Source of the DNA: a virus
Taxonomy: Duplodnaviria; Caudoviricetes
Strand: one strand, 5' to 3'
Length of the DNA: 53,522 bases
Virus record (IMG/VR): IMGVR_UViG_3300030376_000674
Location: 1-53,522 of that record
Every line of letters starts with the position of its first letter. Within the stretch, counting starts at the first letter, position 1. The notes beneath the pieces were generated by a model, which did not search any database, was not told the origin of the DNA, and saw only the letters and a program-made list of their open reading frames with translations. The position numbers and the translations under genes are program-made. Positions 1 through 53,522 of the stretch are shown in pieces.

Positions 1-101
1 TCAAATATAGTTTTACTATATGGACAAACAGATACCCTGGGGACGGTATGTAAAATGGAAGACATGTATTTTTTTTGGAATATATTTTTAACTTTAGTAG
101 T
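1..101. repeat. Terminal direct repeat, left copy (circular-assembly overlap)
   Basis: 1-101 equals 53422-53522 except one base (A99 vs G53520). Confidence 0.95.
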
Positions 102-4024: not shown

Positions 4025-4681
4025 ATGGCAACTAAAAGAATAATAGGCGAAGAAATGAACCCAGAAGCTGTAGAAGCTTTTGCAAATAGAGGTTATCCAA
4101 TACCAGGCCAGTCTTGGACACAGCCTGTAGAAGAAAGACGACCTTTTGAAGGTAAACCTGACTTCACAGATATGAGAGAAGCTTTAGAGTATACAGCTTT
4201 AGAATTACTTGATGAAGAAAACTATGTGCCTATTGTTCTCGCTATGGGTGATGGTGTTCCAGTTATGGACTTATCATTACAAATGGGCTATGTAGGATTT
4301 AGAGAAGGTAAATGGAATCCTGATTTAATGCTTATGTTACTAGAACCATTTGCATATTTACTTATGGCTCTTGCTGAAAAGGCTGGTGTCAAATATAGAA
4401 TAGACTCAGATGATGTTGGTGCTAATTTAGATATGGATGATGGTGTTGCTGATGAAGAAGAAGCAATGTTAGTAGACAGAGCTAAGAATGTAGCTAGAGT
4501 TGCTGCTAGTAAAAAAGCTAGAGAGTCTGGTGGAGGAGTTCCTGAAGGAGCTTTACCTCAAGAAGTAATAGAAAAAATAGAAGCTTTACCTGAACTAGGA
4601 TTACTAGATAGACAGCCAGAAATAGATGGAGATGCTATACCTAGTAATGATAGTTTATTAGCTAGAGGAGAGGAAGAATAA
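4025..4681 (+). CDS. Hypothetical acidic virion-module protein
   Basis: AGGAG RBS, 218 aa, coupled to next gene. Confidence 0.7.
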   Translation: MATKRIIGEEMNPEAVEAFANRGYPIPGQSWTQPVEERRPFEGKPDFTDMREALEYTALELLDEENYVPIVLAMGDGVPVMDLSLQMGYVGFREGKWNPDLMLMLLEPFAYLLMALAEKAGVKYRIDSDDVGANLDMDDGVADEEEAMLVDRAKNVARVAASKKARESGGGVPEGALPQEVIEKIEALPELGLLDRQPEIDGDAIPSNDSLLARGEEE

Positions 4682-6633
4682 TGGGATTATATGATGACGG
4701 TGGTGTTCAATTTGCTCAAGAAACATTTGATAATGCTAGAGCAAGAGGAATAGAACAAGCCAAAAAAGCTGACGAAGAAGGCTATAAGAAAACATTACTT
4801 AGAAGGTTTCTTATAGAGCCTGCTATTGGTGGTATCTTCGGTGAGGTTAGAAAATCTTTTGAAGAAAGAGGACAAACTTTACAGGATAAGAATGTTCCTA
4901 TGAGAACTTATCTTGAAAGTTATTTATCAAATCAAGAACAAACAAGAAATGGATTAGTAAATTCAGAGGACAATCCTAATGGTTTTATTGTTAATGGTGT
5001 AGTTGACCTAAACTTATTACAGAACTATATAGCTAATGACTTAACAGATAGACTAGGTAATCAACAACAATTTCAAAACTTAAATATAACTGAATTAGAT
5101 GGCTATATCCAAGAACAATCTAAATCAGAAGCTATAAGATTAAAAGACTATTATCAAAATTTATACAATGAAAGTATGGATGTTCCTGATATGGAGACAA
5201 TATTATCTCAGTTTGATAAATGGAATAGTAGAGAAAATCCAAAGAATCCTTTTGGAAAAATATTTCAAGGTGTTAAAAGATTAATTGGAATGGAGACACC
5301 AGAGACAATAGACTATAAAAACTTAGAAGCCCATGAAAATCTACGTATTACTTTAGGTGATGCAACAAGTAAAGAGCTTATAGAGTTAGGTAATGCTGTA
5401 AGTGAATACGATAAAGCAGCTACTAGTTCAGGAAGTAGATATGACATTGATGGTTTAATTAGAACAGTTCAAAGTAAAATAGAATCTGGAGAAATATCAG
5501 GCAGAATTATTGAAAATTCTGCTAAGATTAATGACGTTTCAATTACAAGTGGAGGTGTTACTTATAATCAAAAAAGCTATGATTACTTAGAAATAGGCCC
5601 AGATGGTAGACCAATCCTAAGAACTGAAGTTGGTGGGAATCCTGTAATAACTGAAGTGAAAGGTGTAGAACCTCCAACACAGGCACAAATAGATTTAGGT
5701 AAAGAGGCAATGATGGCTGTGTTAGAAGATAGTAATAACAAGTATGACTCTAATTTATATTCAAATGTTATTCAAGGTAAAGGTCAAAAGGTTGGCGACC
5801 CTAGAAGATTAGAAGAGTATTATGGTACAAAAGTAGCTTATGCAGCCAATGCTATGCAGCTTAAAGCAGACCAATATGGTGTTAAAATAGACCCAGGACA
5901 ACTGTATTCTATGGCAGCTTTATATATTTTAAATAATGTTAATGCTGGTTATATAGCTGAAAAAGAGGGCGATAGCTCGTTAATAAGTTTACAAAAATAT
6001 CCTCCTACAAATCCTGACCTCTATGATTTATTTGGTTTTGCAGGTCAAACTACTTTAGATGGAGAAGGTAACTTAATGGTTATTAATAATCTTCCAGCAA
6101 TAGTTAAAGATGTATTAGATACTTCTTTAACTCCTGATGCAGGAACAGTAAGATTAAGAGAAATAAATGCAGATTTACAAAAATTAATTACTGACTCTAC
6201 TAGAGATGATGCAGGAGGCTATTTAACTTTAGATGCTTTACCAGAGTATATTTTAGAATATGATGGAAAAACAGCAGAAGAAAAAATACTTAGATATGAA
6301 TTAGATATGATTTCAGGAATTAATAACATTATGCCTGAAGAAGCAAGAATTATGAATCCTGAGTACAATAAAGTTGCCGAAGGTAGTACATATTTTTCAG
6401 ACCAAGAACAAAGAAAAGCAGAAGAAAAAGAAGAGTTCTTAAGTCAATTTAATGTTGATGAGCAAAATAGACCAGCAAGGTCAAAAGACTATTTTACTAA
6501 AGCAGATGCTCAAGCAGATTTAGAAAGAATGGAACTTGAAGGTGAGTACGAAATTAAGAAAAGAACAGGGCCAACGTACAGAAATAAAAACAGATATTAC
6601 ATTGCAAGAAAAGTAAGATTTATTAATGACTAG
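4681..6633 (+). CDS. Putative internal virion protein
   Basis: 650-aa ORF, GAGGAG RBS, between other large virion-module ORFs. Confidence 0.6.
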   Translation: MGLYDDGGVQFAQETFDNARARGIEQAKKADEEGYKKTLLRRFLIEPAIGGIFGEVRKSFEERGQTLQDKNVPMRTYLESYLSNQEQTRNGLVNSEDNPNGFIVNGVVDLNLLQNYIANDLTDRLGNQQQFQNLNITELDGYIQEQSKSEAIRLKDYYQNLYNESMDVPDMETILSQFDKWNSRENPKNPFGKIFQGVKRLIGMETPETIDYKNLEAHENLRITLGDATSKELIELGNAVSEYDKAATSSGSRYDIDGLIRTVQSKIESGEISGRIIENSAKINDVSITSGGVTYNQKSYDYLEIGPDGRPILRTEVGGNPVITEVKGVEPPTQAQIDLGKEAMMAVLEDSNNKYDSNLYSNVIQGKGQKVGDPRRLEEYYGTKVAYAANAMQLKADQYGVKIDPGQLYSMAALYILNNVNAGYIAEKEGDSSLISLQKYPPTNPDLYDLFGFAGQTTLDGEGNLMVINNLPAIVKDVLDTSLTPDAGTVRLREINADLQKLITDSTRDDAGGYLTLDALPEYILEYDGKTAEEKILRYELDMISGINNIMPEEARIMNPEYNKVAEGSTYFSDQEQRKAEEKEEFLSQFNVDEQNRPARSKDYFTKADAQADLERMELEGEYEIKKRTGPTYRNKNRYYIARKVRFIND

Positions 6634-15885: not shown

Positions 15886-16105
15886 AAGCCTGAATTTCAC
15901 GTTGCAAGTACACATGTAATGGTTCAAGCTTCGCTTTTGCTCTTTGAAGTAAAACTCTGATGATTTGTCTATCCATTTCTGAAAATACTACATCAACTTT
16001 ATCAACTGGAAACTCAGATATTTCTGAGACTATCTTCCCCTCTGGTGTTAGTAGCACCGAAAAACTTATTAAGTTACCATCACTCTTTTGTTTTTTCCTC
16101 TTCAT
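15881..16105 (-). CDS. Hypothetical protein
   Basis: 74 aa, AAGGA RBS, last gene of the minus arm. Confidence 0.7.
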   Translation of the reverse strand: MKRKKQKSDGNLISFSVLLTPEGKIVSEISEFPVDKVDVVFSEMDRQIIRVLLQRAKAKLEPLHVYLQREIQAL

Positions 16106-16523
16106 TTCTATTCCTTAATTCTGTAGTGCTAAATCTATGTCCCCTCTTGTTATAATATATTTCTATTCCTCTTTCTTTACATAGGCCTTTACCTGTGAAT
16201 ATTGCATTTCTATATTCTTCTCCTATGATTCTTACATCAATAGGGAAAGTATATAAAATATCTTCCAACTCATGCTCTCTATGATAAACCACAATATCGT
16301 CCACCCATCTGATACCTTTTAATTGTATCTGCCTTTCTACAATACTTTGTAAAGGTTTGTTTTTTTCTGGTCTATCTGTTGAGGGGTCAGTCTGTAATGC
16401 TACTATTAGATAGTCACATACCGTCTTGGCCTCCTCTAACATAGTGACATGACCTGCATGTAATAAATCAAATGCACCACAGGTAATGCCTACTTTAGAT
16501 TTAAGTCCTAGAAAACTTCTCAT
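16080..16523 (-). CDS. Cytidylyltransferase (TagD / glycerol-3-phosphate CT-like)
   Basis: TCGAFDLLHAGH (HxGH), ER..QL..IRWVD, C-terminal R...FSTTELR. Confidence 0.85.
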   Translation of the reverse strand: MRSFLGLKSKVGITCGAFDLLHAGHVTMLEEAKTVCDYLIVALQTDPSTDRPEKNKPLQSIVERQIQLKGIRWVDDIVVYHREHELEDILYTFPIDVRIIGEEYRNAIFTGKGLCKERGIEIYYNKRGHRFSTTELRNRNEEEKTKE

Positions 16524-41677: not shown

Positions 41678-41824
41678 ATGAAAGTTAAAGCACCCAAAGG
41701 CTACCATTGGATGAAACAACCCAAAGGTGGTTATAAATTAATGAAACATTCAGGTAAGTTTGTAAAACATAAAGGAGCAAGCTTAACTGCTAACTTTGCA
41801 ATACAAAAGGTACATAAAAAATAA
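41678..41824 (+). CDS. Small basic protein, 48 aa (not in ORF track)
   Basis: MKVKAPKGYHWMKQPKGGYKLMKHSGKFVKHKGASLTANFAIQKVHKK; stop overlaps next ATG. Confidence 0.7.
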   Translation: MKVKAPKGYHWMKQPKGGYKLMKHSGKFVKHKGASLTANFAIQKVHKK

Positions 41825-42591
41825 TGGCTACGACATATTTAGAATTAACAAACCAAGCATTAAGAGAACTCAATGAAATACCTTTAACATCTGCTAACTT
41901 TGCAGGTGCTGTAGGTTTACAACAGTTTGTTAAAGATTCTATAAATAAGTCGATTTTTGATATTGCTAATGAAGAACCTCAGTTACCTTTCTTTAGTGCT
42001 GGAGTTAGTGGAAGTACAGACCCTTTCTATGGGAATGTAACTGTAGCTACTGTAGCAGGACAAAGATGGTATACATTAAAAGCTGGGAGTTCAGATATAA
42101 CAACAGATTATGCCTCAATAGATTGGGATGATTTTTTAGTTACAACAGTAAATGTATCTGGAGAAACTTCTCCATTCGTATCTAAAGGATTAAAGTATAT
42201 AACTTTAGATGAATGGACTAGATATTATAGAGACCAAGAAAATTTAGATGATGCTGATACTCAAGCACGTGGTGAACCAGTTAGAGTATATAGAAGTCCA
42301 GACAATAGAAAGTTTGGCCTAAGTCCTATACCTGACAAAGTTTATAACATTCATTTTTATGCTTATGAAAAGCCAACAGCTTTATCATCACATGGAGACA
42401 CTATAGCTTTTCCAGACCAATACTCAAATGTAATTACAGCTAGAACTAGATACTACGTTTGGCAGTTCAAAGACAGTCCTCAACAGGCAGCTTTTGCTTT
42501 GGAAGATTTTAAAAAGGGAATGAGAAATATGAAAAAGAACCTTTTAAATCCACAGCCTAAGTATATTACTGATGATAGGATTTACTTTTAA
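41824..42591 (+). CDS. Tail tubular protein A / head-tail adaptor
   Basis: TYLEL.N.ALRELNE N-terminus, L.PIPDKVY; position after the capsid gene. Confidence 0.75.
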   Translation: MATTYLELTNQALRELNEIPLTSANFAGAVGLQQFVKDSINKSIFDIANEEPQLPFFSAGVSGSTDPFYGNVTVATVAGQRWYTLKAGSSDITTDYASIDWDDFLVTTVNVSGETSPFVSKGLKYITLDEWTRYYRDQENLDDADTQARGEPVRVYRSPDNRKFGLSPIPDKVYNIHFYAYEKPTALSSHGDTIAFPDQYSNVITARTRYYVWQFKDSPQQAAFALEDFKKGMRNMKKNLLNPQPKYITDDRIYF

Positions 42592-44216
42592 TGGCAAACT
42601 CACAACCGTTTACAGTAGCTTGCGAAGGTGGATTAATAAAATCTACAAACTCGTTAGCTTTATTAAGAACTCCAGGATTTGCTACAAAGCTTAGAAACTT
42701 TGAAGTAGGTACTGAGGGTGGCTATAGACGTGTAAGTGGCTTTACTAGATTTGGTGGAGATGATGCTGTTAATCCTAACGGCACAAATAAAATATTAGGA
42801 TTACAAGTTTATGCAGATGGAGTCATAGCTTGTGCAGGAGATGGGATATTTTTTAGTCAGGACGGAACTAGCTGGCTACAAATAAATAGAACAGGAGTTT
42901 CTTCTAGTGGAGATAACTATACTACCTTTACAGGAAGAAGCACACTAGCTAGGACTAATCAGGGACAATGTTCATTTGATGTCTTTGAAGGTGCTAGTGA
43001 TTTTGGTGATGTCTTAATAGTAGACGGAGCTAATAAACCATTCAGATTTAGAATGGAAGGAACAGGAGTTCTAACAAGTAGAACTTTTATAACAGAGGAG
43101 ATTACAGTAAGTGGAACTGTAGCTCCTAAAGTAGGAACAATCCACGATAAACACTTTGTTGTTGCTGGTGATGCTAGTCAAAAGAACACTATCTTTTTTA
43201 GTGGAGTCAATGAAGTCAACAACTTTAGTGCAGCTACGGCAGGTAATATATCTTTAGAAGATGCTGTAGTTGGAATTAAAAGTTTCCGTAACGAATTATT
43301 TATATTTTGTAGAGAGAGTATTCATAAGTTAATAAATATAAATGATTCAACTTCAATAGCTATCGTACCTGTTACAGATAACGTTGGCTGTTTAGATGGA
43401 CAAAGCATACAGGAGATTGCTGGTGACTTGATATTCTTAGCACCAGATGGTTTCAGAACAGTTGCTGGTACATCAAGAATTGGTGATATTGAGTTAAGTA
43501 GTATTAGTAAACAAATACAGCCTTTAGTGCAAAAGATAGCAGAAAGGATTAACTCATTTACTATTAGTAGTGTCGTTATAGGTGATAGGTCTCAGTATAG
43601 ATTATTTTATGTAGATGCAGGTTCAGACACTACATCAAGTTCTAAAGGAATTATAGGAACATTAAGACCAGGTTCTACTGCTAATCCTACAGCAGGATTT
43701 CAATGGTCAGAAACATTAGGTATTCAATGTCCTGCGATAACAGCAGGTTTTGATAATAACGGACTAGAAAAATATTTCCATGGAGATTTAGAAGGAAGAG
43801 TTTTTAAACATGATGAAGGAAATAGTTTTAATGGTGAAAATGTAATAGCTGAGTATGAAACTCCAAATATTGATTATGGAGATTTAGGTACATTAAAGAC
43901 TTTACATTTTATAAAAATATCTTTTGGCCCAGAGGGTGAAGTAACTCCAGTATTAAGAGTTAGATATAATTATGATGACCCTAATCATCCTCAACCAGCA
44001 GATTATATATTAGATAGAATACCACCTCCATCTTTATTTGGAGAAGCAACATTTGGTATTGGAGCAGTTTTTGGTGCTTCAGAAAAACCATTAGTAAGAC
44101 AACAACTACAAGGGAGTGGACATAGTAACATGTTCAGAATTAGAAGTGACGATACAAAGTCTCCATACACAGTAAATGGATTCTTTGTAGATTACGTACC
44201 TTCAGGCAGGAGATAA
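42591..44216 (+). CDS. Tail tubular protein B / nozzle (beta-propeller)
   Basis: 541 aa beta-rich; GGL...NF....GGYRR..GF, VGC....SIQE..GDLIFLAPDG. Confidence 0.75.
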   Translation: MANSQPFTVACEGGLIKSTNSLALLRTPGFATKLRNFEVGTEGGYRRVSGFTRFGGDDAVNPNGTNKILGLQVYADGVIACAGDGIFFSQDGTSWLQINRTGVSSSGDNYTTFTGRSTLARTNQGQCSFDVFEGASDFGDVLIVDGANKPFRFRMEGTGVLTSRTFITEEITVSGTVAPKVGTIHDKHFVVAGDASQKNTIFFSGVNEVNNFSAATAGNISLEDAVVGIKSFRNELFIFCRESIHKLININDSTSIAIVPVTDNVGCLDGQSIQEIAGDLIFLAPDGFRTVAGTSRIGDIELSSISKQIQPLVQKIAERINSFTISSVVIGDRSQYRLFYVDAGSDTTSSSKGIIGTLRPGSTANPTAGFQWSETLGIQCPAITAGFDNNGLEKYFHGDLEGRVFKHDEGNSFNGENVIAEYETPNIDYGDLGTLKTLHFIKISFGPEGEVTPVLRVRYNYDDPNHPQPADYILDRIPPPSLFGEATFGIGAVFGASEKPLVRQQLQGSGHSNMFRIRSDDTKSPYTVNGFFVDYVPSGRR

Positions 44217-44219
44217 AAA

Positions 44220-47200
44220 ATGGCAGGATATACACGACAAAGTACGTTTTCAGATGGCGATACCATCACAGCAGCAATATTCAATAATGAATATAATGCT
44301 ATAGCGAATGCTTTTCATAACCAAACAGGTCACAAACATGACGGCACAGCAGCCGAAGGGCCAGTTATAGGTGTTATTGGAGATGCAGGGGTAGTTACAC
44401 CTCTTAACAAAGTATTAATAGATACAACTAATGACCACATTGAGTTTTGGATAGATGATTCAAGCAGTTCAGTACAGCAAGTATATATAGGCAATGGAGT
44501 TATTGCTCCTGTCACAGATAGCGACATTGACCTAGGTACAAATGCTTTACGATTCAAAGATGCTTATATAGATACTATTACTACAACAAGTAATGTTTCC
44601 GTAGGTGGAAACCTGACTGTCACAGGTACTACAACACTTAACGGAGGAACATTAACACTAGGAGATGCAGCATCAGATAACGTTGTTTTTGGTGCAGATG
44701 TAGACTCAAGCATTATTCCAGATGATGACGATACGTATGACTTAGGTTCAACAACCCAAGAGTGGAGAAATTTATTTATAGACGGTACTGCTAATATTGA
44801 TAGCTTAGTATTAGGTAGTGGTGTAACTGTTACAAGTATTCTTGATGAAGATGGATTAACTTCTGATAGTGCTAGTGCTTTAGCAACTCAACAATCTATT
44901 AAAGCTTATGTTGATGCTCAGGTAACAGCACAAGACTTAGACTTCCAAGGTGATTCAGGTGGAGCATTATCTATTGACTTAGATAGTGAAACTCTTGATA
45001 TAGCTGGTGGTACAGGTATTGATACAGCAGGTTCTGGTAATACATTAACAGTTGCTATTGATTCTACTGTAGCAACTTTAACAGGTTCACAAACTTTAAC
45101 AAACAAAACAATAGATGTAGATAACAATACGTTATCTAATATAGAAGTAGACAATTTTAAGTCTGGAGTTTTAGATACAGATATATCTTCCGTAGCAGGA
45201 ACAGACACAACACTTGCTTCAGCTAAAGCTATTAAGACTTATGTTGATGCTCAAGTAACAGCTCAAGATTTAGATGCTACTACTGATAGTGGTACAGTTG
45301 CAATAGACCTAGATAGTGAAACATTAACTATTGCAGGTGGAGAAGGTATAGATACTTCAGGTTCTGGTAATACAATTACAATTACAGGTGAACTAGCTAC
45401 AGAAACAAATGCTGGTGTTGCTACTTTTGATGGTACTGACTTTACAGTTTCTTCAGGCGATGTAACTCTAAATGCAGAAAGAATACAAGATATTACTGGG
45501 GCAATGTTCTCAGGAAATACTGAGACAGGTATTGCAATTACTTATGATGATAGTGACGGAACAATAGATGCAGTAGTTAGCTTATCGCCATTTGATACAG
45601 ATAACTTATCAGAAGGCTCAAGTAATTTATATTATACAAATGCTAGAGTAAGAAGTCATATTACAGGTTCTGACCTGGATATGGGTGGTAATAAAGTATT
45701 ATTTGGTAATCTTTATTCTAATGAATCTGATTTACCAAGTGCATCAACATATCATGGTATGTTTGCACACGTTCATGCGACAGGTAAAGGTTACTTTGCA
45801 CACGGTGGTCAATGGCATAAATTATTAGATGAGTCATCTTCTGATACTGGTGATTTAACAGAAGGAAGTAATTTATATTTTACAAATGCTAGAGCAGATG
45901 CTAGAGCAGATGCAAGGATAGCAGCATCTTCAACAGATGACCTATCAGAAGGTTCAAGCAATTTATATCATACAGTAGAAAGAGTACAAGATGTAGTTGG
46001 TGGTATGGTTTCTTCTAATACTGAAAATGGTATTAGTGTAACCTATGACGATAGTGATGGTACTTTAGACTTTGATGTTAATGACCCTACTATTACTTTA
46101 GCAGGAGATGTGACTGGTTCAGCAACAATGACTAACCTAGGTAATGTTTCTATTACTACAACAGTTGCAGCAAACTCAGTTGCTTTAGGTACAGATACAA
46201 CAGGAGATTATGTTGATAGTTTAGTAGCAGGAACTGGTGTTACTTTAACTAATAACTCAGGCGAAAGTGCTACACCTACAGTAGCTATTGGACAAGCAGT
46301 AGAAACAAATTCAAGTGTAACTTTTGGTTCAGTTACAACTACAGGTAATACTACCGTAGGAGGAAATTTAGTTGTAAATGGAACTACGACCACACTTAAT
46401 ACTGCCACTTTAGATGTTGAAGATAATAATATAACACTTAACAAAGGTTCAGGCGATACATCAGGTTCAGCAGATGGTGCAGGTATTACAATTCAAGATG
46501 CTGTTAATTCTTCTACAGATGCAACTATAGCCTGGAGTGCAGCTAATGATAATTTTGTGTTCTCACATGAAGTAGTTGCTCCAAGTTTAGATATATCAGG
46601 TAATGTAGATATTGATGGCACATTAGAAACAGATGCATTAACTATTAATGGTACAGCTTCAGTTCCTTTTGAATCTGCTGACCATAGTAAATTAGATGGT
46701 ATAGAAGCAAATGCAACAGCAGACCAAACTGCTTCTGAGATTAGAGCATTAGTTGAAGCAGCAACAGACTCAAATGTATTCACAGATGCTGACCACACTA
46801 AACTTAATAATATTGAAGCCAATGCTACAGGAGACCAAACTGCTAGTGAAATAAAAGCTTTATATGAAGGTAATTCAGATACAAATGCATTTACTGATGC
46901 AGATGAAAGTAAGTTAGATGGTATAGAAGCAAATGCTACAGCAGACCAAACAGATGAAGAAATACAAGATATAGTAGGTGGAATGCTTACTGGTAATACT
47001 GAAACAGGTATTACTGTTACATATCAAGATAGTGATGGAACAATAGATTTTGTTGTAGCATCTCAGACAGATGAAAACTTTACAACAGCAGACCATGCTA
47101 AATTAGATGGTATAGAAGCTGGAGCTACTGGCGACCAAACAGCAGCAGAAATTAGAGCATTAGTAGAATCTGCTAGTGATTCTAATGTATTTACTGATGC

Positions 47201-50200
47201 TGACCATACCAAGTTAAACGGTATTGAAGCTAGTGCTGATGTTACAGACTCAGCAAATGTTGGAAGTGCTTTAACAGGATTTAGCACAGGTACAGATGCT
47301 GATAGTGCTGATTTAATAGCTTACTATGATGTAAGTGCAAATGCTTGGGAAAAAGGAACTATATCAGATGTAGCTTTACAAGGTGATAAAGGTCAGAAAG
47401 GTGAAGGTGGAGTTCTTGGTTCTAAAGGTCAGAAAGGTGAAGTAGGTCAGAAAGGTCAGAAGGGTGAAGAAGGAGCTGATGGTTCTAAAGGTCAAAAAGG
47501 TGAAGTAGGTGCTACAGGTTCTAAAGGACAAAAAGGTGAAGTAGGTAACACAGGTAGTAACGGTGATAAAGGCCAGAAGGGACAAAAAGGTGAAGTCGGA
47601 GCTACAGGTAATGCAGGTGGCGATGGAGATAAAGGTCAGAAAGGTGAAGTAGGTGCTTCAGGTTCTAACGGTGCTAAAGGCCAAAAAGGTGAAGTAGGTG
47701 CTACAGGTTCTAAAGGACAAAAAGGTGAGGCAGGTGTTGATGGTGCTGCTTCAGACGGTACTAAAGGTCAGAAAGGACAAAAAGGTGAAGTAGGTGCTAC
47801 AGGTTCTAAAGGACAGAAAGGTGAAGTAGGTAACACAGGTGCTGCTGGTAATGATGGTACTGATGGCGATAAAGGTCAAAAAGGTGAAGTAGGTGCTGCT
47901 GGTAGTAACGGTTCAAACGGTTCAAAGGGACAAAAAGGTGAAGTAGGAGCTACAGGTAACAATGGTTCTAACGGTTCTGACGGTGACAAAGGTCAGAAAG
48001 GTGAAGCAGGAACTAATGGTTCTAATGGTTCTAATGGCTCAAAAGGTGAGAAAGGTCAAAAAGGACAAACAGGTAACACAGGTGCTGCTGGTAATGACGG
48101 TAATGACGGTGCTAAAGGACAGAAAGGTGAGAAAGGCCAGAAAGGTGAAGTAGGTGCTACAGGTTCTAAGGGACAGAAAGGTGAAGTAGGTGCTACAGGT
48201 TCTAAGGGACAGAAAGGTGAGAAAGGTCAGAAAGGTGTAAAAGGACAAGAAGGAAACTTCGGTGGACAAACATTTGCTTATGACTTTGATACAGGTACTT
48301 CAGATGCAGACCCAGGTAATGGTGAGTTAAGATTAAATAACGGTACTGTATCTAGTGCAAGTATATTATATATTGATGACCAAGATTCAGGTGGTACTGA
48401 TATACAAAGTTATCTAAGAACTATTGATGATAGTGATTCTACTATTAAAGGTCATGTAAGAATATCAAATAAATTAGATGCTTCAGACTTTGCTCTGTTT
48501 ACAATTAGTGGTTCTATAACAGAAGCTTCAGGATATTTCAAAGTTCCTGTAGCTTATGTAAGTGGTTCAGCATCTTCATTCTCAAATGGTGAAGACTTAA
48601 TTGTAACCTTTGCAAGAACTGGAGACCAAGGTGACAAAGGTCAAAAAGGTGAAGTAGGTTCTACAGGCTCTACAGGTTCAAAAGGACAGAAAGGTGAAGT
48701 AGGAGCTACAGGTCAAAAAGGTCAGAAAGGTGAAGTCGGCTCTACTGGTTCAACAGGTGCTAAAGGGGAAAAAGGCCAGAAAGGTCAAACAGGTGCTACA
48801 GGTGGAGACGGTAACGATGGTAATGACGGTTCAAAAGGACAGAAAGGTGAAGTAGGTGCTGCTGGTAACAATGGAACTAATGGTTCTAAAGGTCAGAAAG
48901 GTGAAGTAGGAGCTGCTGGTAATAACGGTACAAATGGTTCTGACGGTGATAAAGGGCAAAAAGGTCAAGCAGGTTCTAATGGAACTAATGGAACTAATGG
49001 TTCTAAAGGTCAGAAGGGTCAAGCAGGTACTAATGGTTCTGATGGAAACGATGGAACTAATGGCGATAAAGGTCAGAAAGGTGAAGCAGGTTCTAATGGA
49101 ACTAATGGCGATAAAGGTCAGAAAGGTCAAGCAGGTTCTAATGGAACTAATGGAACTAATGGTTCTAAGGGACAAAAAGGTGAAGCAGGTACTAATGGTA
49201 CAAATGGTACTAACGGAACTGATGGTTCTAAAGGTCAGAAAGGCCAGGCTGGTACTAACGGAAGTAACGGAACTGATGGTGACAAAGGTCAAAAAGGTCA
49301 AGCAGGTACTAACGGTAATAATGGTACAAATGGAACTGATGGTGACAAAGGTCAGAAAGGTGAAGTAGGTCAGAAAGGCCAGAAAGGTCAAGCAGGAACT
49401 AACGGAACTGACGGTACTGATGGCGATAAAGGTCAGAAAGGTGAAGTAGGACAGAAAGGCCAGAAAGGTGAAGTAGGAGCTACTGGTGTAGGTCAGAAAG
49501 GTCAGAAAGGTCAGAAGGGTCAAACAGGTGCTACAGGTGTAGGACAAAAAGGACAGAAAGGTGAAACAGGTGCTAAAGGCCAGAAAGGTGAAGTAGGGCC
49601 TACAGGTACAGGTCAAAAAGGACAGAAAGGTGCGACAGGTGATAAAGGCCAGAAAGGTCAAACAGGTACAGGTTCTAAAGGACAGAAAGGTGAAGTAGGT
49701 TCTAAAGGTCAGAAAGGTGAAGTAGGCACAGGTCAAAAAGGTCAGAAAGGTGAAGCAGGTGGATTTACTACAAGTTCAAATGCTCAAGTTAATAGTTTAG
49801 GTATTAACACAGCAGGCTCAGGTACAGCAGGTGAGATTAGGGCAACTAATAACATTACAGCTTACTACTCTGATGCAAGACTAAAAGACTTTGAAAGCAC
49901 TATACCAAATGCTCTAGACAAAGTATTAGCTCTAAGTGGTTACTACTTTAGAGAAAATGAGCTAGCTAAAGAGTTAGGTTATGAAAATGATAAACGACAA
50001 GTTGGTGTATCAGCTCAAGAGGTACAAGATGTATTACCAGAAGTAGTAACAGAAGCACCTATTGATGAGAAATACTTAACTGTTTGGTATGATAAGTTAG
50101 TTCCTTTATTAATAGAAGCTATTAAAGAACTAGCTGAAGACTCACATCCTCCAAAATGTTTACAAGATATGGAAGGATTTGAAGATATACAACGAAGATT

Positions 50201-50222
50201 AGAAGACTTAGAAAATAAATAA
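44220..50222 (+). CDS. Tail fibre with two collagen-like blocks and C-terminal intramolecular chaperone (S74-type)
   Basis: 2000 aa; GH.HDG N-terminus; LSEGSSNLY and KLDGIEA.AT.DQT repeats; Gly-X-Y blocks; YYSDARLK...GVSAQEV..VLPEVV...LLIEAIKEL. Confidence 0.9.
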   Translation: MAGYTRQSTFSDGDTITAAIFNNEYNAIANAFHNQTGHKHDGTAAEGPVIGVIGDAGVVTPLNKVLIDTTNDHIEFWIDDSSSSVQQVYIGNGVIAPVTDSDIDLGTNALRFKDAYIDTITTTSNVSVGGNLTVTGTTTLNGGTLTLGDAASDNVVFGADVDSSIIPDDDDTYDLGSTTQEWRNLFIDGTANIDSLVLGSGVTVTSILDEDGLTSDSASALATQQSIKAYVDAQVTAQDLDFQGDSGGALSIDLDSETLDIAGGTGIDTAGSGNTLTVAIDSTVATLTGSQTLTNKTIDVDNNTLSNIEVDNFKSGVLDTDISSVAGTDTTLASAKAIKTYVDAQVTAQDLDATTDSGTVAIDLDSETLTIAGGEGIDTSGSGNTITITGELATETNAGVATFDGTDFTVSSGDVTLNAERIQDITGAMFSGNTETGIAITYDDSDGTIDAVVSLSPFDTDNLSEGSSNLYYTNARVRSHITGSDLDMGGNKVLFGNLYSNESDLPSASTYHGMFAHVHATGKGYFAHGGQWHKLLDESSSDTGDLTEGSNLYFTNARADARADARIAASSTDDLSEGSSNLYHTVERVQDVVGGMVSSNTENGISVTYDDSDGTLDFDVNDPTITLAGDVTGSATMTNLGNVSITTTVAANSVALGTDTTGDYVDSLVAGTGVTLTNNSGESATPTVAIGQAVETNSSVTFGSVTTTGNTTVGGNLVVNGTTTTLNTATLDVEDNNITLNKGSGDTSGSADGAGITIQDAVNSSTDATIAWSAANDNFVFSHEVVAPSLDISGNVDIDGTLETDALTINGTASVPFESADHSKLDGIEANATADQTASEIRALVEAATDSNVFTDADHTKLNNIEANATGDQTASEIKALYEGNSDTNAFTDADESKLDGIEANATADQTDEEIQDIVGGMLTGNTETGITVTYQDSDGTIDFVVASQTDENFTTADHAKLDGIEAGATGDQTAAEIRALVESASDSNVFTDADHTKLNGIEASADVTDSANVGSALTGFSTGTDADSADLIAYYDVSANAWEKGTISDVALQGDKGQKGEGGVLGSKGQKGEVGQKGQKGEEGADGSKGQKGEVGATGSKGQKGEVGNTGSNGDKGQKGQKGEVGATGNAGGDGDKGQKGEVGASGSNGAKGQKGEVGATGSKGQKGEAGVDGAASDGTKGQKGQKGEVGATGSKGQKGEVGNTGAAGNDGTDGDKGQKGEVGAAGSNGSNGSKGQKGEVGATGNNGSNGSDGDKGQKGEAGTNGSNGSNGSKGEKGQKGQTGNTGAAGNDGNDGAKGQKGEKGQKGEVGATGSKGQKGEVGATGSKGQKGEKGQKGVKGQEGNFGGQTFAYDFDTGTSDADPGNGELRLNNGTVSSASILYIDDQDSGGTDIQSYLRTIDDSDSTIKGHVRISNKLDASDFALFTISGSITEASGYFKVPVAYVSGSASSFSNGEDLIVTFARTGDQGDKGQKGEVGSTGSTGSKGQKGEVGATGQKGQKGEVGSTGSTGAKGEKGQKGQTGATGGDGNDGNDGSKGQKGEVGAAGNNGTNGSKGQKGEVGAAGNNGTNGSDGDKGQKGQAGSNGTNGTNGSKGQKGQAGTNGSDGNDGTNGDKGQKGEAGSNGTNGDKGQKGQAGSNGTNGTNGSKGQKGEAGTNGTNGTNGTDGSKGQKGQAGTNGSNGTDGDKGQKGQAGTNGNNGTNGTDGDKGQKGEVGQKGQKGQAGTNGTDGTDGDKGQKGEVGQKGQKGEVGATGVGQKGQKGQKGQTGATGVGQKGQKGETGAKGQKGEVGPTGTGQKGQKGATGDKGQKGQTGTGSKGQKGEVGSKGQKGEVGTGQKGQKGEAGGFTTSSNAQVNSLGINTAGSGTAGEIRATNNITAYYSDARLKDFESTIPNALDKVLALSGYYFRENELAKELGYENDKRQVGVSAQEVQDVLPEVVTEAPIDEKYLTVWYDKLVPLLIEAIKELAEDSHPPKCLQDMEGFEDIQRRLEDLENK
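47382..48251 (+). repeat. Collagen-like Gly-X-Y block 1
   Basis: Roughly 95 triplets, dominated by GQK, GEV, GSK, GDK, GAT. Confidence 0.95.
48621..49760 (+). repeat. Collagen-like Gly-X-Y block 2
   Basis: Roughly 125 triplets (GQK, GTN, GSN, GDK), a few interruptions near the end. Confidence 0.95.
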
Positions 50223-50842
50223 TGTCATATATTTGTAGAGATTTATCTGAAAGAGATGTTGACCATCTAGAAAATACTGGAGTGTTAGATGAGTTCTATC
50301 TTGCTAATGTAAAATATTTAGAAGGAGATAAGAACTTTAATTATGCTAACTGTGGTTTAACTACAGAAGAGTTTAATAATCTAACACAAGACCAGAAAAA
50401 ATATTTTTGGAAAAAGTTTTTAAGACCTATGGGTAGGATTGTTGAAACAACACCTTTTGAAGAACCAGAGCCTTATGTATTTAAGTCTTTAGCTATGCAA
50501 GCTCCAGATGGATATATATTACATCTTTATAATGGATATATAGACGGTAATATCTGGGTAGAAGAAAGAGGTTTAACAAGACCTGATGCTAGTGGTTCAA
50601 GAGCTTATACATTTACAAATGACTTTTGGACTCCTAAATATACTTACTTAAAAAGTTTAGGAATAACTAAGATAAAAAGAGTTATTGACATGGGTGGAGA
50701 ACTTGTTGCATTATTAACTAATCCAGATAGTTACAACTATAACACACATTTAGATGCTTCAACAATGGTAGTTGAAGATGTTACCTCTACTTATCCTTGG
50801 GGTGATGTAACACATAAACATATAACAATAGATTTAACATGA
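50222..50842 (+). CDS. Hypothetical protein
   Basis: 206 aa, coupled to the fibre gene. Confidence 0.75.
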   Translation: MSYICRDLSERDVDHLENTGVLDEFYLANVKYLEGDKNFNYANCGLTTEEFNNLTQDQKKYFWKKFLRPMGRIVETTPFEEPEPYVFKSLAMQAPDGYILHLYNGYIDGNIWVEERGLTRPDASGSRAYTFTNDFWTPKYTYLKSLGITKIKRVIDMGGELVALLTNPDSYNYNTHLDASTMVVEDVTSTYPWGDVTHKHITIDLT

Positions 50843-51624
50843 GTACATTAAGTGATACAAACGTAAGTTTCGATGGAATGCGAGACCTTTTTGATAATTT
50901 AACAACTCAGGGAAGCACGTCTTCTTGGTCATTAAACAATCAAAAACATATTGACCGTTGTCCTGTTATTAATGGTGGTCAAGGTAGTGGTAAAGTTCCT
51001 GTAACGTTTGGTCAGTCTGAAGCTACTAGTACAACTAGTATGAATGCAAATGATTTTAAAAGTATTTTTAAAGTAGATTCTGTTAGAGCAACTGCTACTA
51101 CAGGTACTAATAAAAACCAAACACAGCATAACTTTACAGGATTTGGAACACTTCACGGTATGTATGCTGCTAGTAAACAAAATATTACCAACAATAATAG
51201 TGGTGTTGGTGTAGCATACGATGGTACTAATACTTATACAGGGACTGGTAACAATCAAAACTTTATAACTTTTGATGATTTAAATAGTAATTTTAATTCT
51301 AACAAAGACATTGCTGCTGTAGGATTTTATGAAGCAGGATTTACTGCTTTAGAAATGGTTGTAGTTTTTAGAGGTTCAGGAGCTTCAGCAACTGATACAG
51401 ACTGGAGTAATATGTATCTAAGAACAATTAGTGAGCTTCACGAAACAGCAGGTACTGAAGACATTAATATACAGATGGGAGGAGTTTTTGCTAACAATGC
51501 TACATCAGGTTATAATGTGACTACATATTCAAATATTCTTTATGGCCCTTATTATCGCCATGCATGGATATTACCTAATGTATCTTTTGCTGCTTCTAGT
51601 GTAACCTATGTTAAGTTTGACTAA
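50839..51624 (+). CDS. Hypothetical N/T/G-rich protein, possible fibre-tip adhesin
   Basis: 261 aa, beta-rich low-charge composition; function inferred from position only. Confidence 0.55.
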   Translation: MSTLSDTNVSFDGMRDLFDNLTTQGSTSSWSLNNQKHIDRCPVINGGQGSGKVPVTFGQSEATSTTSMNANDFKSIFKVDSVRATATTGTNKNQTQHNFTGFGTLHGMYAASKQNITNNNSGVGVAYDGTNTYTGTGNNQNFITFDDLNSNFNSNKDIAAVGFYEAGFTALEMVVVFRGSGASATDTDWSNMYLRTISELHETAGTEDINIQMGGVFANNATSGYNVTTYSNILYGPYYRHAWILPNVSFAASSVTYVKFD

Positions 51625-51626
51625 TA

Positions 51627-51635
51627 TGGTACAAT
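51627..51635 (+). promoter_or_regulatory. Extended -10 promoter, probably leaderless
   Basis: TGG-TACAAT, ATG 6 nt later, no SD. Confidence 0.5.
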
Positions 51636-51641
51636 CTTGTA

Positions 51642-53474
51642 ATGAAGAAATTAGTTATAAGTTTACAGCGAAGAACAGATAGAAAAAAAGAATTTTATAA
51701 AAATAATTTAATAAATTATGAATTTATAAAAGCAATAGACTATAAAAGACTAGATGACTTTATAGTTGATGAAGAGTTTAGAGACCCTTTTAAAAACAGA
51801 CCAGTTTTAAAAAGTGAAGTAGCATGCTTCTTATCTCACAAAAAAACATGGGAAAGATGTTTAGAGTTAGATGAACCTGTTATTATCTTAGAGGATGATG
51901 CAGTAGTAAATGAAAGATGGGATGAAGAATACTACAAAGACTTAATAGATAGATACGATTTTATATACTTACAAAAAAACGAGAACGAACCTGACAAAGT
52001 TATAAGTATAGATGATAAATTGGAGATACCTTCTTATCCTTATAATTTAACAGGCTACATAATAAAACCCTCAACGGCAAAAATTTTATTAGATAATATA
52101 GATAAAATTATTCCTGCTGATGAATATGTACCTAAATTAATAAAGGAGAAAGTTTTGAATAACGTAGTATCATTAAAGAAAGATTCTTGTAATCAAATAT
52201 CCAGAGATATAAGTCCAAGTGATATTGAAGTTCCAGCAGGTATAGCTAGAAACTTTAAAGTACATCCACTTACTATTGGCACAGATAGAAAGAAATGTTC
52301 TAGATTATTTACAAGTGCTAGGCATTGTGGAATAGATATAGTAAATCTAGGAAACAATGTAGAGTGGCAGGGAACTGACATGGTAGGCCCTGGTGGTGGA
52401 CATAAGGTAAACTTGTTAAGAGAATATATCAACAAGTTACCAGACAATGATGTAGTTTTATTTACAGATGCATACGATGTTTTTTATGCAGACAATTTAG
52501 AAACTATAACAGAAAGATACTTAGGATTTAATTGTAAGGTTTTGTTTTCAGCAGAACAATATTGTTGGCCTGATGCAGATTTAGAACATGTATTTCCAGA
52601 TGCTCCAACTAAATATAGATTTTTAAATAGTGGAACATTTATAGGTGAAGTAGGTGAACTTAAAAAAATACTAGCAACTGATTCTGTAGATGATGATGGA
52701 GATGACCAGTTATATTATCAAAAGATATTTTTAAGTGGTGAGTTTGATATACAACTAGACTATGAAGGTTATATATTCCAAACACACGAAGCAAATACTA
52801 CAATGCTTGAAGGTCAACTTTACAATCCTATAACAAAATGTTGTAGTTGTATTTACCACGGTAATGGTGGTGATTTAACCAAGAAAAAATTTGACCAGAT
52901 GTATGACAGGTTTTTTCCAAAGCAACAAAGTTTATTTATAGAACCACAAGGTTTTGAAATATTAGATGATGACATATTGCTTGTAGATTTTATGACACAA
53001 GAACAATGTGAAAGATTGATTGAAATAGCTGACAATCATGGAGGCTGGGGAAGTTTAAGTTATGATAAGTTTCCAGCACAAGAGATAAGATTAAAAGAAC
53101 TAGGACTCTGGCAAGAACTAGAAAATCATTGGCAAACACATATAGTTCCAATTATAGAAAGTTATTGGAAGCCAATGGAAATGTATGGACTTAGAGATGC
53201 ATTTACAATGAGATACTCAGTCGATACACAAAAAGATTTACCTTTACATACTGATGCTAGTTTAGTTACAGGAAGTATAAAACTAAACGATGATTATGAA
53301 GGTGCTGATTTAGTTTATCCAAGACAGAATTTTAGTAATAAAGATATACCTGTAGGAAAATGTATATTGTTTCCTGGGATGGTAACACATGGTCATGCAT
53401 GTCAAACCTTAACCAAAGGAGTCAAATATAGTTTTACTATATGGACAAACAGATACCCTGGGGACGGTATGTAA
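51642..53474 (+). CDS. Three-domain GT25 + PLOD-type glycosyltransferase + 2OG-Fe(II) lysyl-hydroxylase-like protein
   Basis: GT25: ISL.RR.DR, E.ACFLSH...W, ILEDDA, PADEY. PLOD-GT: GGGHKV.LL, LFTDAYDV, FSAE..CWPD, RFLNSG.FIG, DDQLYY, HGNG. Dioxygenase: MRY....Q..L.LHTDAS, LNDDYEG, FPG.VTH.H, GVKY. Confidence 0.88.
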   Translation: MKKLVISLQRRTDRKKEFYKNNLINYEFIKAIDYKRLDDFIVDEEFRDPFKNRPVLKSEVACFLSHKKTWERCLELDEPVIILEDDAVVNERWDEEYYKDLIDRYDFIYLQKNENEPDKVISIDDKLEIPSYPYNLTGYIIKPSTAKILLDNIDKIIPADEYVPKLIKEKVLNNVVSLKKDSCNQISRDISPSDIEVPAGIARNFKVHPLTIGTDRKKCSRLFTSARHCGIDIVNLGNNVEWQGTDMVGPGGGHKVNLLREYINKLPDNDVVLFTDAYDVFYADNLETITERYLGFNCKVLFSAEQYCWPDADLEHVFPDAPTKYRFLNSGTFIGEVGELKKILATDSVDDDGDDQLYYQKIFLSGEFDIQLDYEGYIFQTHEANTTMLEGQLYNPITKCCSCIYHGNGGDLTKKKFDQMYDRFFPKQQSLFIEPQGFEILDDDILLVDFMTQEQCERLIEIADNHGGWGSLSYDKFPAQEIRLKELGLWQELENHWQTHIVPIIESYWKPMEMYGLRDAFTMRYSVDTQKDLPLHTDASLVTGSIKLNDDYEGADLVYPRQNFSNKDIPVGKCILFPGMVTHGHACQTLTKGVKYSFTIWTNRYPGDGM

Positions 53475-53522
53475 AATGGAAGACATGTATTTTTTTTGGA
53501 ATATATTTTTAACTTTAGTGGT
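53422..53522. repeat. Terminal direct repeat, right copy
   Basis: Matches 1-101 with one substitution. Confidence 0.95.

Follow-up and report, generated by a model that had tools for sequence, protein, structure and literature searches.

A three-domain enzyme with collagen-type lysyl hydroxylase and glycosyltransferase domains beside a lysine-rich collagen tail fibre in a marine phage genome

Introduction

The IMG/VR virus record IMGVR_UViG_3300030376_000674 (Duplodnaviria; Caudoviricetes), analysed here over its whole length of 53,522 bases (the window), carries a gene for a tail fibre of 2000 amino acids (aa) with long collagen-like stretches and, downstream on the same strand, a gene for a 610-aa protein whose domains resemble the lysyl hydroxylase and glycosyltransferase (GT) domains of collagen-modifying enzymes. 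The locus raises the question of whether a bacteriophage modifies the lysines (Lys) of its own collagen, and how far such a modification would go. To our knowledge, measurements of hydroxylysine-linked collagen glycosylation are confined to animals and, in part, mimivirus. An initial annotation of this DNA had proposed that a single protein carries out all three steps (hydroxylation and two sugar transfers) on the fibre, an interpretation that the comparisons below partly support. The 610-aa enzyme probably hydroxylates and glycosylates Lys of the neighbouring fibre in three steps, and the reading of the fibre as substrate has its observed base in homology, catalytic-residue conservation, the confinement of Lys to the Y position of Gly-X-Y triplets and gene linkage.

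The three-domain enzyme

The enzyme and its domains are located as follows.

51642..53474, + strand: 610-aa three-domain enzyme (open reading frame (ORF), Pfam, PDB matches, AlphaFold2 model)
51642..52226, + strand: GT25 domain (aa 1 to about 195), candidate for the transfer of the first sugar onto hydroxylysine (Pfam PF01755)
52260..52895, + strand: PLOD-type GT domain (aa 207-418), candidate for the second sugar transfer (Pfam PF25342)
52935..53447, + strand: lysyl hydroxylase (LH) domain (aa 432-602) of the Fe(II)/2-oxoglutarate (2OG) type (LH3 and L230 matches)

Pfam, PDB and Foldseek agree on the division made initially into a GT25 domain, a PLOD/LH3-type GT domain and a PLOD-like 2OG-Fe(II) domain, and the motifs quoted for it (GGGHKV, FTDAYDV, SAEQYCWPD, FLNSG, DDQLYY, HGNG and HTD...H) all occur in the translation. 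In PDB sequence searches, the protein matches human LH3 in two stretches (211-381 and 432-599; E 2e-35) and mimivirus R699 (6e-26). A profile of 35 homologues (56-90% identity), which also served for residue conservation, was searched against the PDB and found LH3 at 5.5e-53, R699 at 6.4e-39, COLGALT1 at 1.6e-24 and the L230 hydroxylase at 7.6e-13; prolyl hydroxylases did not reach 0.01. The AlphaFold2 model (mean predicted local distance difference test score, pLDDT, 89.2; predicted template modelling score, pTM, 0.87) recovers the same structures by Foldseek as the sequence search, at 21-29% identity per domain. The catalytic motifs of all three domains are kept across the 35 homologues, D538 being conserved in 34 of them.

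Regarding its distribution, the enzyme has homologues in 786 clusters at 90% identity (E <= 1e-3, near-length search) and in 214 representatives at 50% identity (E <= 1e-30), and near-identical copies are present on independent contigs. NCBIfam holds no family for it, and its homologues are publicly labelled 'GR25 family glycosyltransferase involved in LPS biosynthesis' (LPS, lipopolysaccharide) or '2OG-Fe(II) oxygenase'. Shorter natural forms combine GT_PLOD with LH (about 417 aa, e.g. P0143), GT25 with GT_PLOD (about 440-470 aa) or GT25 with LH.

The donor sugar of GT25 enzymes in animals is uridine diphosphate (UDP)-galactose, and that of L230 is UDP-glucose. In the phage protein, Pfam Glyco_transf_25 covers aa 2-161 (E 3.4e-24, 86.2 bits against a cut-off of 24), and PDB sequence comparison matches aa 5-168 to COLGALT1 at 2e-9. 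Compared with solved structures only, the domain is closer to the collagen-type than to the LPS-type GT25: the profile scores are 1.6e-24 (89.6 bits) for COLGALT1, 7.6e-12 for mimivirus R655 and 4.4e-9 (38.6 bits) for the bacterial GT25 8xlz, and the Foldseek values are 3.8e-12, 4.1e-9 and 1.3e-6 for COLGALT1, R655 and bacterial GT25 respectively. E84-D85-D86 is invariant (35/35) and aligned with the 'EDD' of COLGALT1; the putative GT motif described for L230 is E106-D107-D108 (PMC9614988).

The middle domain is recognised by Pfam GT_PLOD over aa 207-418 (E 1.2e-51, 175.7 bits against a cut-off of 27) and by Foldseek as similar to the GT domain of human LH3 (6wfv; E 2.3e-19, target template modelling (TM) score 0.84, root-mean-square deviation 2.1) and to R699 (3e-18). 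D276, D279, W242, D354, D355 and H406 are invariant in the 35 homologues; position 278 is Tyr in 29 and Phe in 6, and position 309 is Trp in 26 and Tyr in 9. D276-A-Y-D279 aligns with the LH3 'DSYD', W242 with LH3 'EEWRGGD', and D354-D355 with the final two Asp of LH3 'DDDDD'. In R699 the Mn2+-binding DXXD motif is reported as critical (PMC9546862), and polyacidic residues, which D354/D355 match, as required (PMC12279948). The accessory (second Rossmann) domain is not present: the LH3 match ends at chain position 238 and restarts at 529, and the query passes over the same interval from 416 to 432. The middle domain is thus a relative of the catalytic domain and not a full LH3/R699-type unit.

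The C-terminal domain has a double-stranded beta-helix fold nearest the hydroxylase domains of LH3 and L230, an enzyme class whose activity requires a homodimer. Its PDB sequence matches are LH3 (6e-8) and L230 (3.4e-7), followed by PiuC (8e-3), and by Foldseek it matches L230 (6ax6_B; E 1e-9, target TM 0.72), with prolyl hydroxylases only at 1.5e-5. The Fe(II) triad is recognisable, as H536-T-D538 aligns with the LH3 'HHD' and H585 with the second His of LH3 'THYH'; H536 and H585 are conserved in 35/35 homologues and D538 in 34/35, and K595 is also found in 35/35.

The fibre and its collagen

The proposed substrate and its parts are the following.

44220..50222, + strand: tail fibre gene, 2000 aa, proposed substrate (ORF; PHROG tail-fibre families; Pfam Collagen, 300 bits)
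44220..45269, + strand: fibre N-terminal anchor (aa 1-350), common to HMO-2011-type phage fibres
47382..48269, + strand: collagen block 1 (aa 1055-1350), 98 Gly-X-Y triplets in two runs with 44 Lys at Y
48270..48620, + strand: 117-aa non-collagen insert (aa 1351-1467) dividing the stalk in two (from the translation; no family matched)
48621..49733, + strand: collagen block 2 (aa 1468-1838), 121 triplets in five runs with 46 Lys at Y (run count)
49869..50048, + strand: Peptidase_S74 intramolecular chaperone (trimerisation, self-cleaving type; aa 1884-1943; Pfam PF13884, E 2.1e-10)

The 219 Gly-X-Y triplets of the fibre are distributed over 7 runs, each of four or more, the long ones having 41, 57 and 97; those of block 1 lie at 47382-47750 (41 triplets, 19 Lys) and 47757-48269 (57 triplets, 25 Lys). 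A collagen helix rises 0.286 nm per residue, which gives the 657 collagen residues a span of about 188 nm. Long uninterrupted Gly-X-Y runs together with a C-terminal trimerisation module are the features of a trimeric collagen-like fibre. Lys occupies Y in 90 of the 219 triplets and X in none (GQK occurs 51 times), an outcome with a chance of 8e-28 if X and Y were equally likely, and only one Pro falls within the collagen runs. The residues that follow the 90 Y-position Lys are Gly-Gln (54), Gly-Glu (34), Gly-Val (1) and Gly-Ala (1). The fibre of roughly 220 triplets, rich in Lys at Y and 1.4 kb upstream of the enzyme, on which the initial proposal had been built is therefore borne out by the counts and by a gap of 1,420 bp.

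Linkage of the enzyme with collagen bearing Lys at Y

The association was examined from three starting points. The set defined by the enzyme comprises 37 loci (34 from IMG/VR and 3 from named phages), many of them near-duplicates. All 26 with at least 2.8 kb of upstream DNA carry, on the same strand, upstream collagen with Lys among the top three Y residues, and in the 11 collagen-free loci the upstream DNA extends no further than 2.1 kb. The pairing is also found in the T4-like cyanophages S-PRM1 and S-CAM9 and in the tape-measure-bearing Roseobacter phage CRP-6, and some enzyme loci are without the podophage tail gene; a collagen gene with an S74 C-terminus is the only neighbouring feature common to enzyme loci of podo-, myo- and sipho-type backgrounds. 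Among 185,579 prokaryote species genomes (one for each species), the enzyme had five matches, all on contigs of metagenome-assembled genomes (MAGs), and the three with at least 2.4 kb upstream (3/3) carry collagen there. These contigs (L260-L264) bear the labels Neomarinimicrobiota, Gammaproteobacteria, Bacteroidia, Sansalvadorimonas and Pseudomonadales, which give no evidence on hosts because the contigs are probably phage contigs binned with MAGs.

The set defined by the fibre anchor comprises 80 IMG/VR loci, 19 of which have at least 8 kb downstream. Collagen and enzyme are both present in 5 of the 19 and both absent in 14, with no discordant locus (Fisher p = 8.6e-5, uncorrected for relatedness). 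Three more anchor loci have collagen and end 6.2-7.4 kb downstream, short of where the enzyme would lie. In the related phages HMO-2011, HTVC104P and HTVC115P, the 10 kb flanking the fibre gene on each side contain no collagen run of six or more triplets, and these phages are not among the 13 phage records that carry the enzyme.

The set defined by collagen was obtained with a degenerate DNA motif scan for GQKGQKGE, which is biased toward fibres like that of the window; it gave 66 distinct contigs, 54 with at least 40 triplets and, of these, 25 with at least 5 kb downstream. In the collagen of these 66 other contigs, Lys stands 3923 times at Y and 12 times at X. A hydroxylase homologue is held by 20 of the 25, as 17 three-domain forms, 2 GT25+LH forms and 1 with LH only. 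The co-occurrence proposed at the outset thus holds across unrelated phage types. Since the domains fit collagen-type enzymes better and the enzyme tracks collagen fibres, neither of the two sequence findings that had been named as contrary to the proposal (domains closer to LPS-type GT25 or prolyl hydroxylases; homologues independent of collagen fibres) was obtained.

Two further observations concern the enzymes beside phage collagens. GT25+LH proteins without the PLOD-type GT (L123/L124, L172, L179) lie downstream of the most Lys-rich collagens, in which Lys makes up 49-56% of Y over 352-475 triplets. Additionally, some enzymes are accompanied by an extra small PF13640 2OG-Fe(II) oxygenase of the S-PRM1 gp160/gp161 type (e.g. 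L001 10839-12004), present in 16/21 loci with Pro in at least 10% of X and in 2/33 below that value (at least 40 triplets; L001-L195, not de-duplicated). The pattern points to a distinct proline hydroxylase serving phage collagens that are rich in Pro. The window itself has no PF13640 oxygenase gene, and its collagen bears no Pro apart from the one residue.

Proposed mechanism and alternative explanations

According to the proposed mechanism, the enzyme would be produced in the host cytoplasm late in infection, at the same time as the tail genes are expressed, and would act on new, still unfolded fibre chains. The C-terminal Fe(II)/2OG domain would convert Y-position Lys in Gly-X-Lys-Gly to hydroxylysine, the N-terminal GT25 domain would add a hexose from a UDP-sugar to the hydroxylysine, and the middle PLOD-type domain would add a second hexose; afterwards, the S74 chaperone would trimerise the chains and the triple helix would close, resulting in a collagen stalk of about 190 nm with up to 90 modified Lys per chain. 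The benefit may lie in stabilising or hydrating a proline-free helix or in the surface properties of the fibre; stability, protease shielding or adhesion had been suggested initially. We infer the timing of expression, the order of the steps, the identity of the sugars, the extent of modification and the benefit from the features described above.

Several observations weigh against this reading. Lys-Gly-Glu pairing is able to stabilise unmodified triple helices, and 34 of the 90 Lys are followed by Gly-Glu; the Lys-at-Y pattern may therefore be partly structural in origin. As the sole cause of the pattern, such pairing was rejected because collagen-free relatives are without the enzyme and the enzyme is always beside such collagen, and it stays a partial explanation. 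In the hydroxylase domain, Pfam 2OG-FeII_Oxy_3 is matched weakly over aa 533-602 (E 0.041, below the cut-off), and the Arg of the LH3 '...GTRY...' is replaced by an invariant and still basic Lys (GVKY, K595, 35/35); this Arg is presumably the 2OG-binding one, the counterpart of R887, which has that function in L230 (PMC9614988). The five positive anchor loci represent about two lineages, and many IMG/VR loci are near-duplicates. For five of the 25 Lys-rich collagen contigs, the available DNA nearby contains no homologue of the hydroxylase, so Lys at Y does not require the lysyl hydroxylase enzyme. One of these five, L143 (9242-9862), and L186 (3033-3653), which has less than 5 kb downstream and lies outside the 25, carry a PF13759 2OG-Fe(II) oxygenase directly after collagen and tail-assembly-chaperone genes, and another of the five, L192, carries a GT11 glycosyltransferase gene (4400-5347); both types may be alternative fibre-modifying enzymes. 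The viral relative L230 also falls short of the full pathway, as its GT activity has been assigned to aa 1-194 and is reported to add one glucose and not galactose, and in mimivirus particles hydroxylysine is described as confirmed and glucosylation as not confirmed (PMC9614988).

A first alternative is that the enzyme acts on the fibre and stops short of the full pathway, giving hydroxylation only or a single sugar, with one GT domain structural or directed at another acceptor. L230 is reported to yield glucosyl-hydroxylysine only (PMC9614988), and nature has both the GT25+LH forms found beside the most Lys-rich collagens and GT_PLOD+LH forms such as P0143, so two domains can suffice; however, both GT domains keep their metal-binding and acidic motifs unchanged in 35/35 homologues, which argues that both are active in this enzyme family, and we consider a truncated pathway unlikely. 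It is still less probable, and in our estimate a minor contender, that the target is a host surface glycan (LPS) or another host or phage protein and that the adjacency to the fibre is incidental. This alternative is encouraged by the public labels of the homologues ('LPS biosynthesis' GR25, '2OG-Fe(II) oxygenase') and by the many oxygenases without assigned role that are described in cyanophages (PMC2938197); it has to contend with a GT25 domain scoring far better against COLGALT1 than against the bacterial GT25 (1.6e-24 versus 4.4e-9) and fused to a collagen-type lysyl hydroxylase, with a collagen gene with an S74 end as the sole neighbour shared across phage types, and with collagen-free relatives that are without the enzyme. 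An explanation of the gene as a non-functional relic or a product of faulty assembly is hardly credible: the frame is intact, the model confident, homologues make up the 786 clusters and 214 representatives mentioned above, near-identical copies occur on independent contigs, and no observation speaks in its favour.

Full modification of the fibre in three steps is thus the preferred explanation. A much wider proposal may be put forward tentatively, as something rather doubtful in its entirety: that abundant marine phages, among them podophages akin to SAR11 phages, produce true glycosylated hydroxylysine collagen within the cytoplasm of bacteria with one 610-aa whole-pathway enzyme (Lys to hydroxylysine to hexosyl-hydroxylysine to dihexosyl-hydroxylysine), and that stalk, S74 domain and enzyme travel together as a cassette among podo-, myo- and siphophages.

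Genome context and neighbouring genes

The window spans the entire genome of a marine podophage of the HMO-2011 type. The record is rated as a whole virus genome with 100% completeness, and an exact 98-nt direct repeat stands at its two ends (window 1-98 = 53422-53519), which gives a unique genome length of about 53.4 kb and covers the final 53 nt of the 610-aa enzyme ORF; such a repeat fits a circularly permuted or terminally redundant genome that was assembled with overlap. The portal protein has 61% identity with that of Pelagibacter phage HTVC115P, 57% with those of HTVC103P and HTVC104P and 47% with that of Puniceispirillum phage HMO-2011. Further genes encode a DNA polymerase, a primase-helicase, a ribonucleotide reductase, a terminase, a major head protein and a SU10-adaptor-like tail protein. 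The closest cultured relatives are phages of Pelagibacter, and by this analogy, the sole pointer available, they suggest a SAR11 host. Additionally, the window encodes on the minus strand (16080-16523) a 147-aa cytidylyl/adenylyltransferase-family protein similar to RfaE domain II or glycerol-3-phosphate cytidylyltransferase, which passes the cut-off only for the general TIGR00125 domain and adjoins the ribonucleotide reductase genes; a part in activated-sugar synthesis is conceivable.

Upstream of the fibre gene lie the SU10-adaptor-like gene (41824-42591) and a 541-aa tail gene (42591-44216). The fibre anchor has 52-64% identity (tblastn) with the fibre genes of HMO-2011, HTVC103P, HTVC104P and HTVC115P and matches 602 IMG/VR stretches, and the fibre C-terminus (aa 1840-2000) has tblastn matches in 25 of the 37 loci (L001-L037), cyanophage loci among them. 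The collagen blocks are preceded by repeat units of about 40 aa (DGIEANATADQTASEIRALVE; window 46500-47300, fibre aa about 760-1030) that have 46-65% identity with fibre genes of cyanopodoviruses and cyanomyoviruses (P-SSP7, NATL2A-133, S-CREM2 and many others). The fibre is thus a mosaic of modules common across marine phage families.

The interval of 1,420 bp between fibre and enzyme contains two small ORFs.

50222..50842, + strand: 206-aa ORF without Pfam, PHROG or NCBIfam match
50839..51624, + strand: 261-aa ORF without Pfam, PHROG or NCBIfam match

Homologues of the 206-aa ORF stand at the same position in 11 of the 37 loci, the named cyanophage and CRP-6 loci not being among them; those of the 261-aa ORF occur in 12 of the 37, and this ORF may encode a structural protein associated with the fibre. 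In the ESM Atlas, the 206-aa ORF had no usable match, and the 261-aa ORF had only viral hypothetical clusters at 0.85, to be taken as a lead only. All genes from fibre to enzyme share one strand; the first two junctions overlap and the third is a gap of 17 nt. A terminator scan detected no terminator-like site in these junctions and a single weak one within the 261-aa ORF, and a promoter scan was uninformative, promoter-like sites being rarer than in shuffled sequences. Two metatranscriptomic libraries from one study contain contigs matching the enzyme ORF over 369 nt (1 difference), 182 nt (0) and 226 nt (5), and the share of sampled words stayed at or below 0.08 in every RNA run; since DNA carry-over is possible and a single study is involved, they are not counted as evidence of expression.

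Implications

If the wider proposal is true, collagen lysine glycosylation would be widespread in viruses and prokaryotes rather than a speciality of animals and giant viruses, and the phage enzyme would provide a minimal, bacterially expressible tool for glycosylated recombinant collagen. A phage version of hydroxylysine glycosylation would bring this chemistry to viruses of bacteria and add a post-translational layer to the biology of phage fibres. It would also directly account for part of the many unexplained marine phage genes that bear the labels '2OG-Fe(II) oxygenase' or 'GT25 LPS' (PHROG 61). A compact enzyme that has no accessory domain could be of practical use as well; human collagen glycosyltransferases in active form are described as hard to express in bacteria (PMC9546862). 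The proposal is directly testable in the cultured phages S-PRM1 and S-CAM9 (hosts Synechococcus WH7803) and CRP-6 (host Roseobacter FZCC0042), which bear full-length homologues beside Lys-rich collagen. The present case adds a podophage lineage, a clean presence/absence contrast within one fibre family, and an L230-type enzyme without the accessory domain.

Comparison with known systems

No account of lysine hydroxylation in a phage fibre, or of hydroxylysine glycosylation there, emerged from a search of open-access full texts and bioRxiv. Among prokaryotes, BclA of Bacillus anthracis has a collagen-like repeat that carries sugars on the Thr of GXT, attached by unrelated enzymes; hydroxylysine is not known to be involved. 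Prokaryotic collagen-like and tail-collar proteins have been predicted from gene neighbourhoods to be substrates of neighbouring dioxygenases (Iyer et al., 2010; PMC2938197), a situation similar to the present one; the dioxygenases treated there belong to other families and are not lysyl hydroxylases combined with GT25 and PLOD-type GT domains, and the account, as far as it was consulted, includes no phage fibre.

The human system, LH3 (PLOD3) and COLGALT1 (GLT25D1; complex PDB 8zgc), has the same three catalytic domain types and acts on the X-Lys-Gly motif (PMC9546862); two of the three phage domains have their top PDB match among its proteins. It differs in being made of two proteins of the endoplasmic reticulum lumen, COLGALT1 with an extra N-terminal domain and LH3 with the accessory domain, whereas the phage has one protein, proposed to be cytoplasmic, without either. 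In mimivirus, the galactosylhydroxylysyl glucosyltransferase R699 (PDB 9dyt) matches the middle domain, with DXXD and acidic motifs in common, and the GT25 protein R655 (PDB 9crz) matches the N-terminal domain (7.6e-12); unlike the domains of the phage enzyme, these are products of separate genes, and R699 has the accessory domain and is reported to be dimeric (PMC12279948).

The closest counterpart is mimivirus L230 (895 aa; hydroxylase PDB 6ax6, 9nev), a single viral protein with a GT25-like N-terminus and a C-terminal collagen lysyl hydroxylase that yields glucosyl-hydroxylysine and that hydroxylated and glucosylated peptides from the viral collagen-like protein L71 (PMC9614988). Its reported substrates are the virus's own proline-poor, Lys-containing collagen-like proteins (PMC9614988), as is proposed for the phage. 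Database proteins of about 880-1190 aa carry GT25, then GT_PLOD and then a C-terminal oxygenase, the latter two forming an LH3-like unit of GT, accessory and LH domains: in P0200 (899 aa) COLGALT1 is matched at 5-193 and the whole of LH3 at 232-898, in the same order as in the phage enzyme, and K7YEL3 of Megavirus courdo11 (889 aa) aligns with the phage model along its length. By analogy with these two proteins, we infer that L230 itself contains a PLOD-type GT domain. The presence of three domain types in one chain, as initially claimed for the phage protein, is thus upheld, and the special status given to it is not, since P0200 and K7YEL3 carry them too. The phage enzyme differs from L230 in its length of 610 aa, in the missing accessory domain (its LH3 matches being about 15 residues apart), in the Lys at the aligned Arg, in a bacterial host and in a tail fibre instead of capsid fibrils; judged by its domains, it is a compact L230-type enzyme minus the accessory domain.

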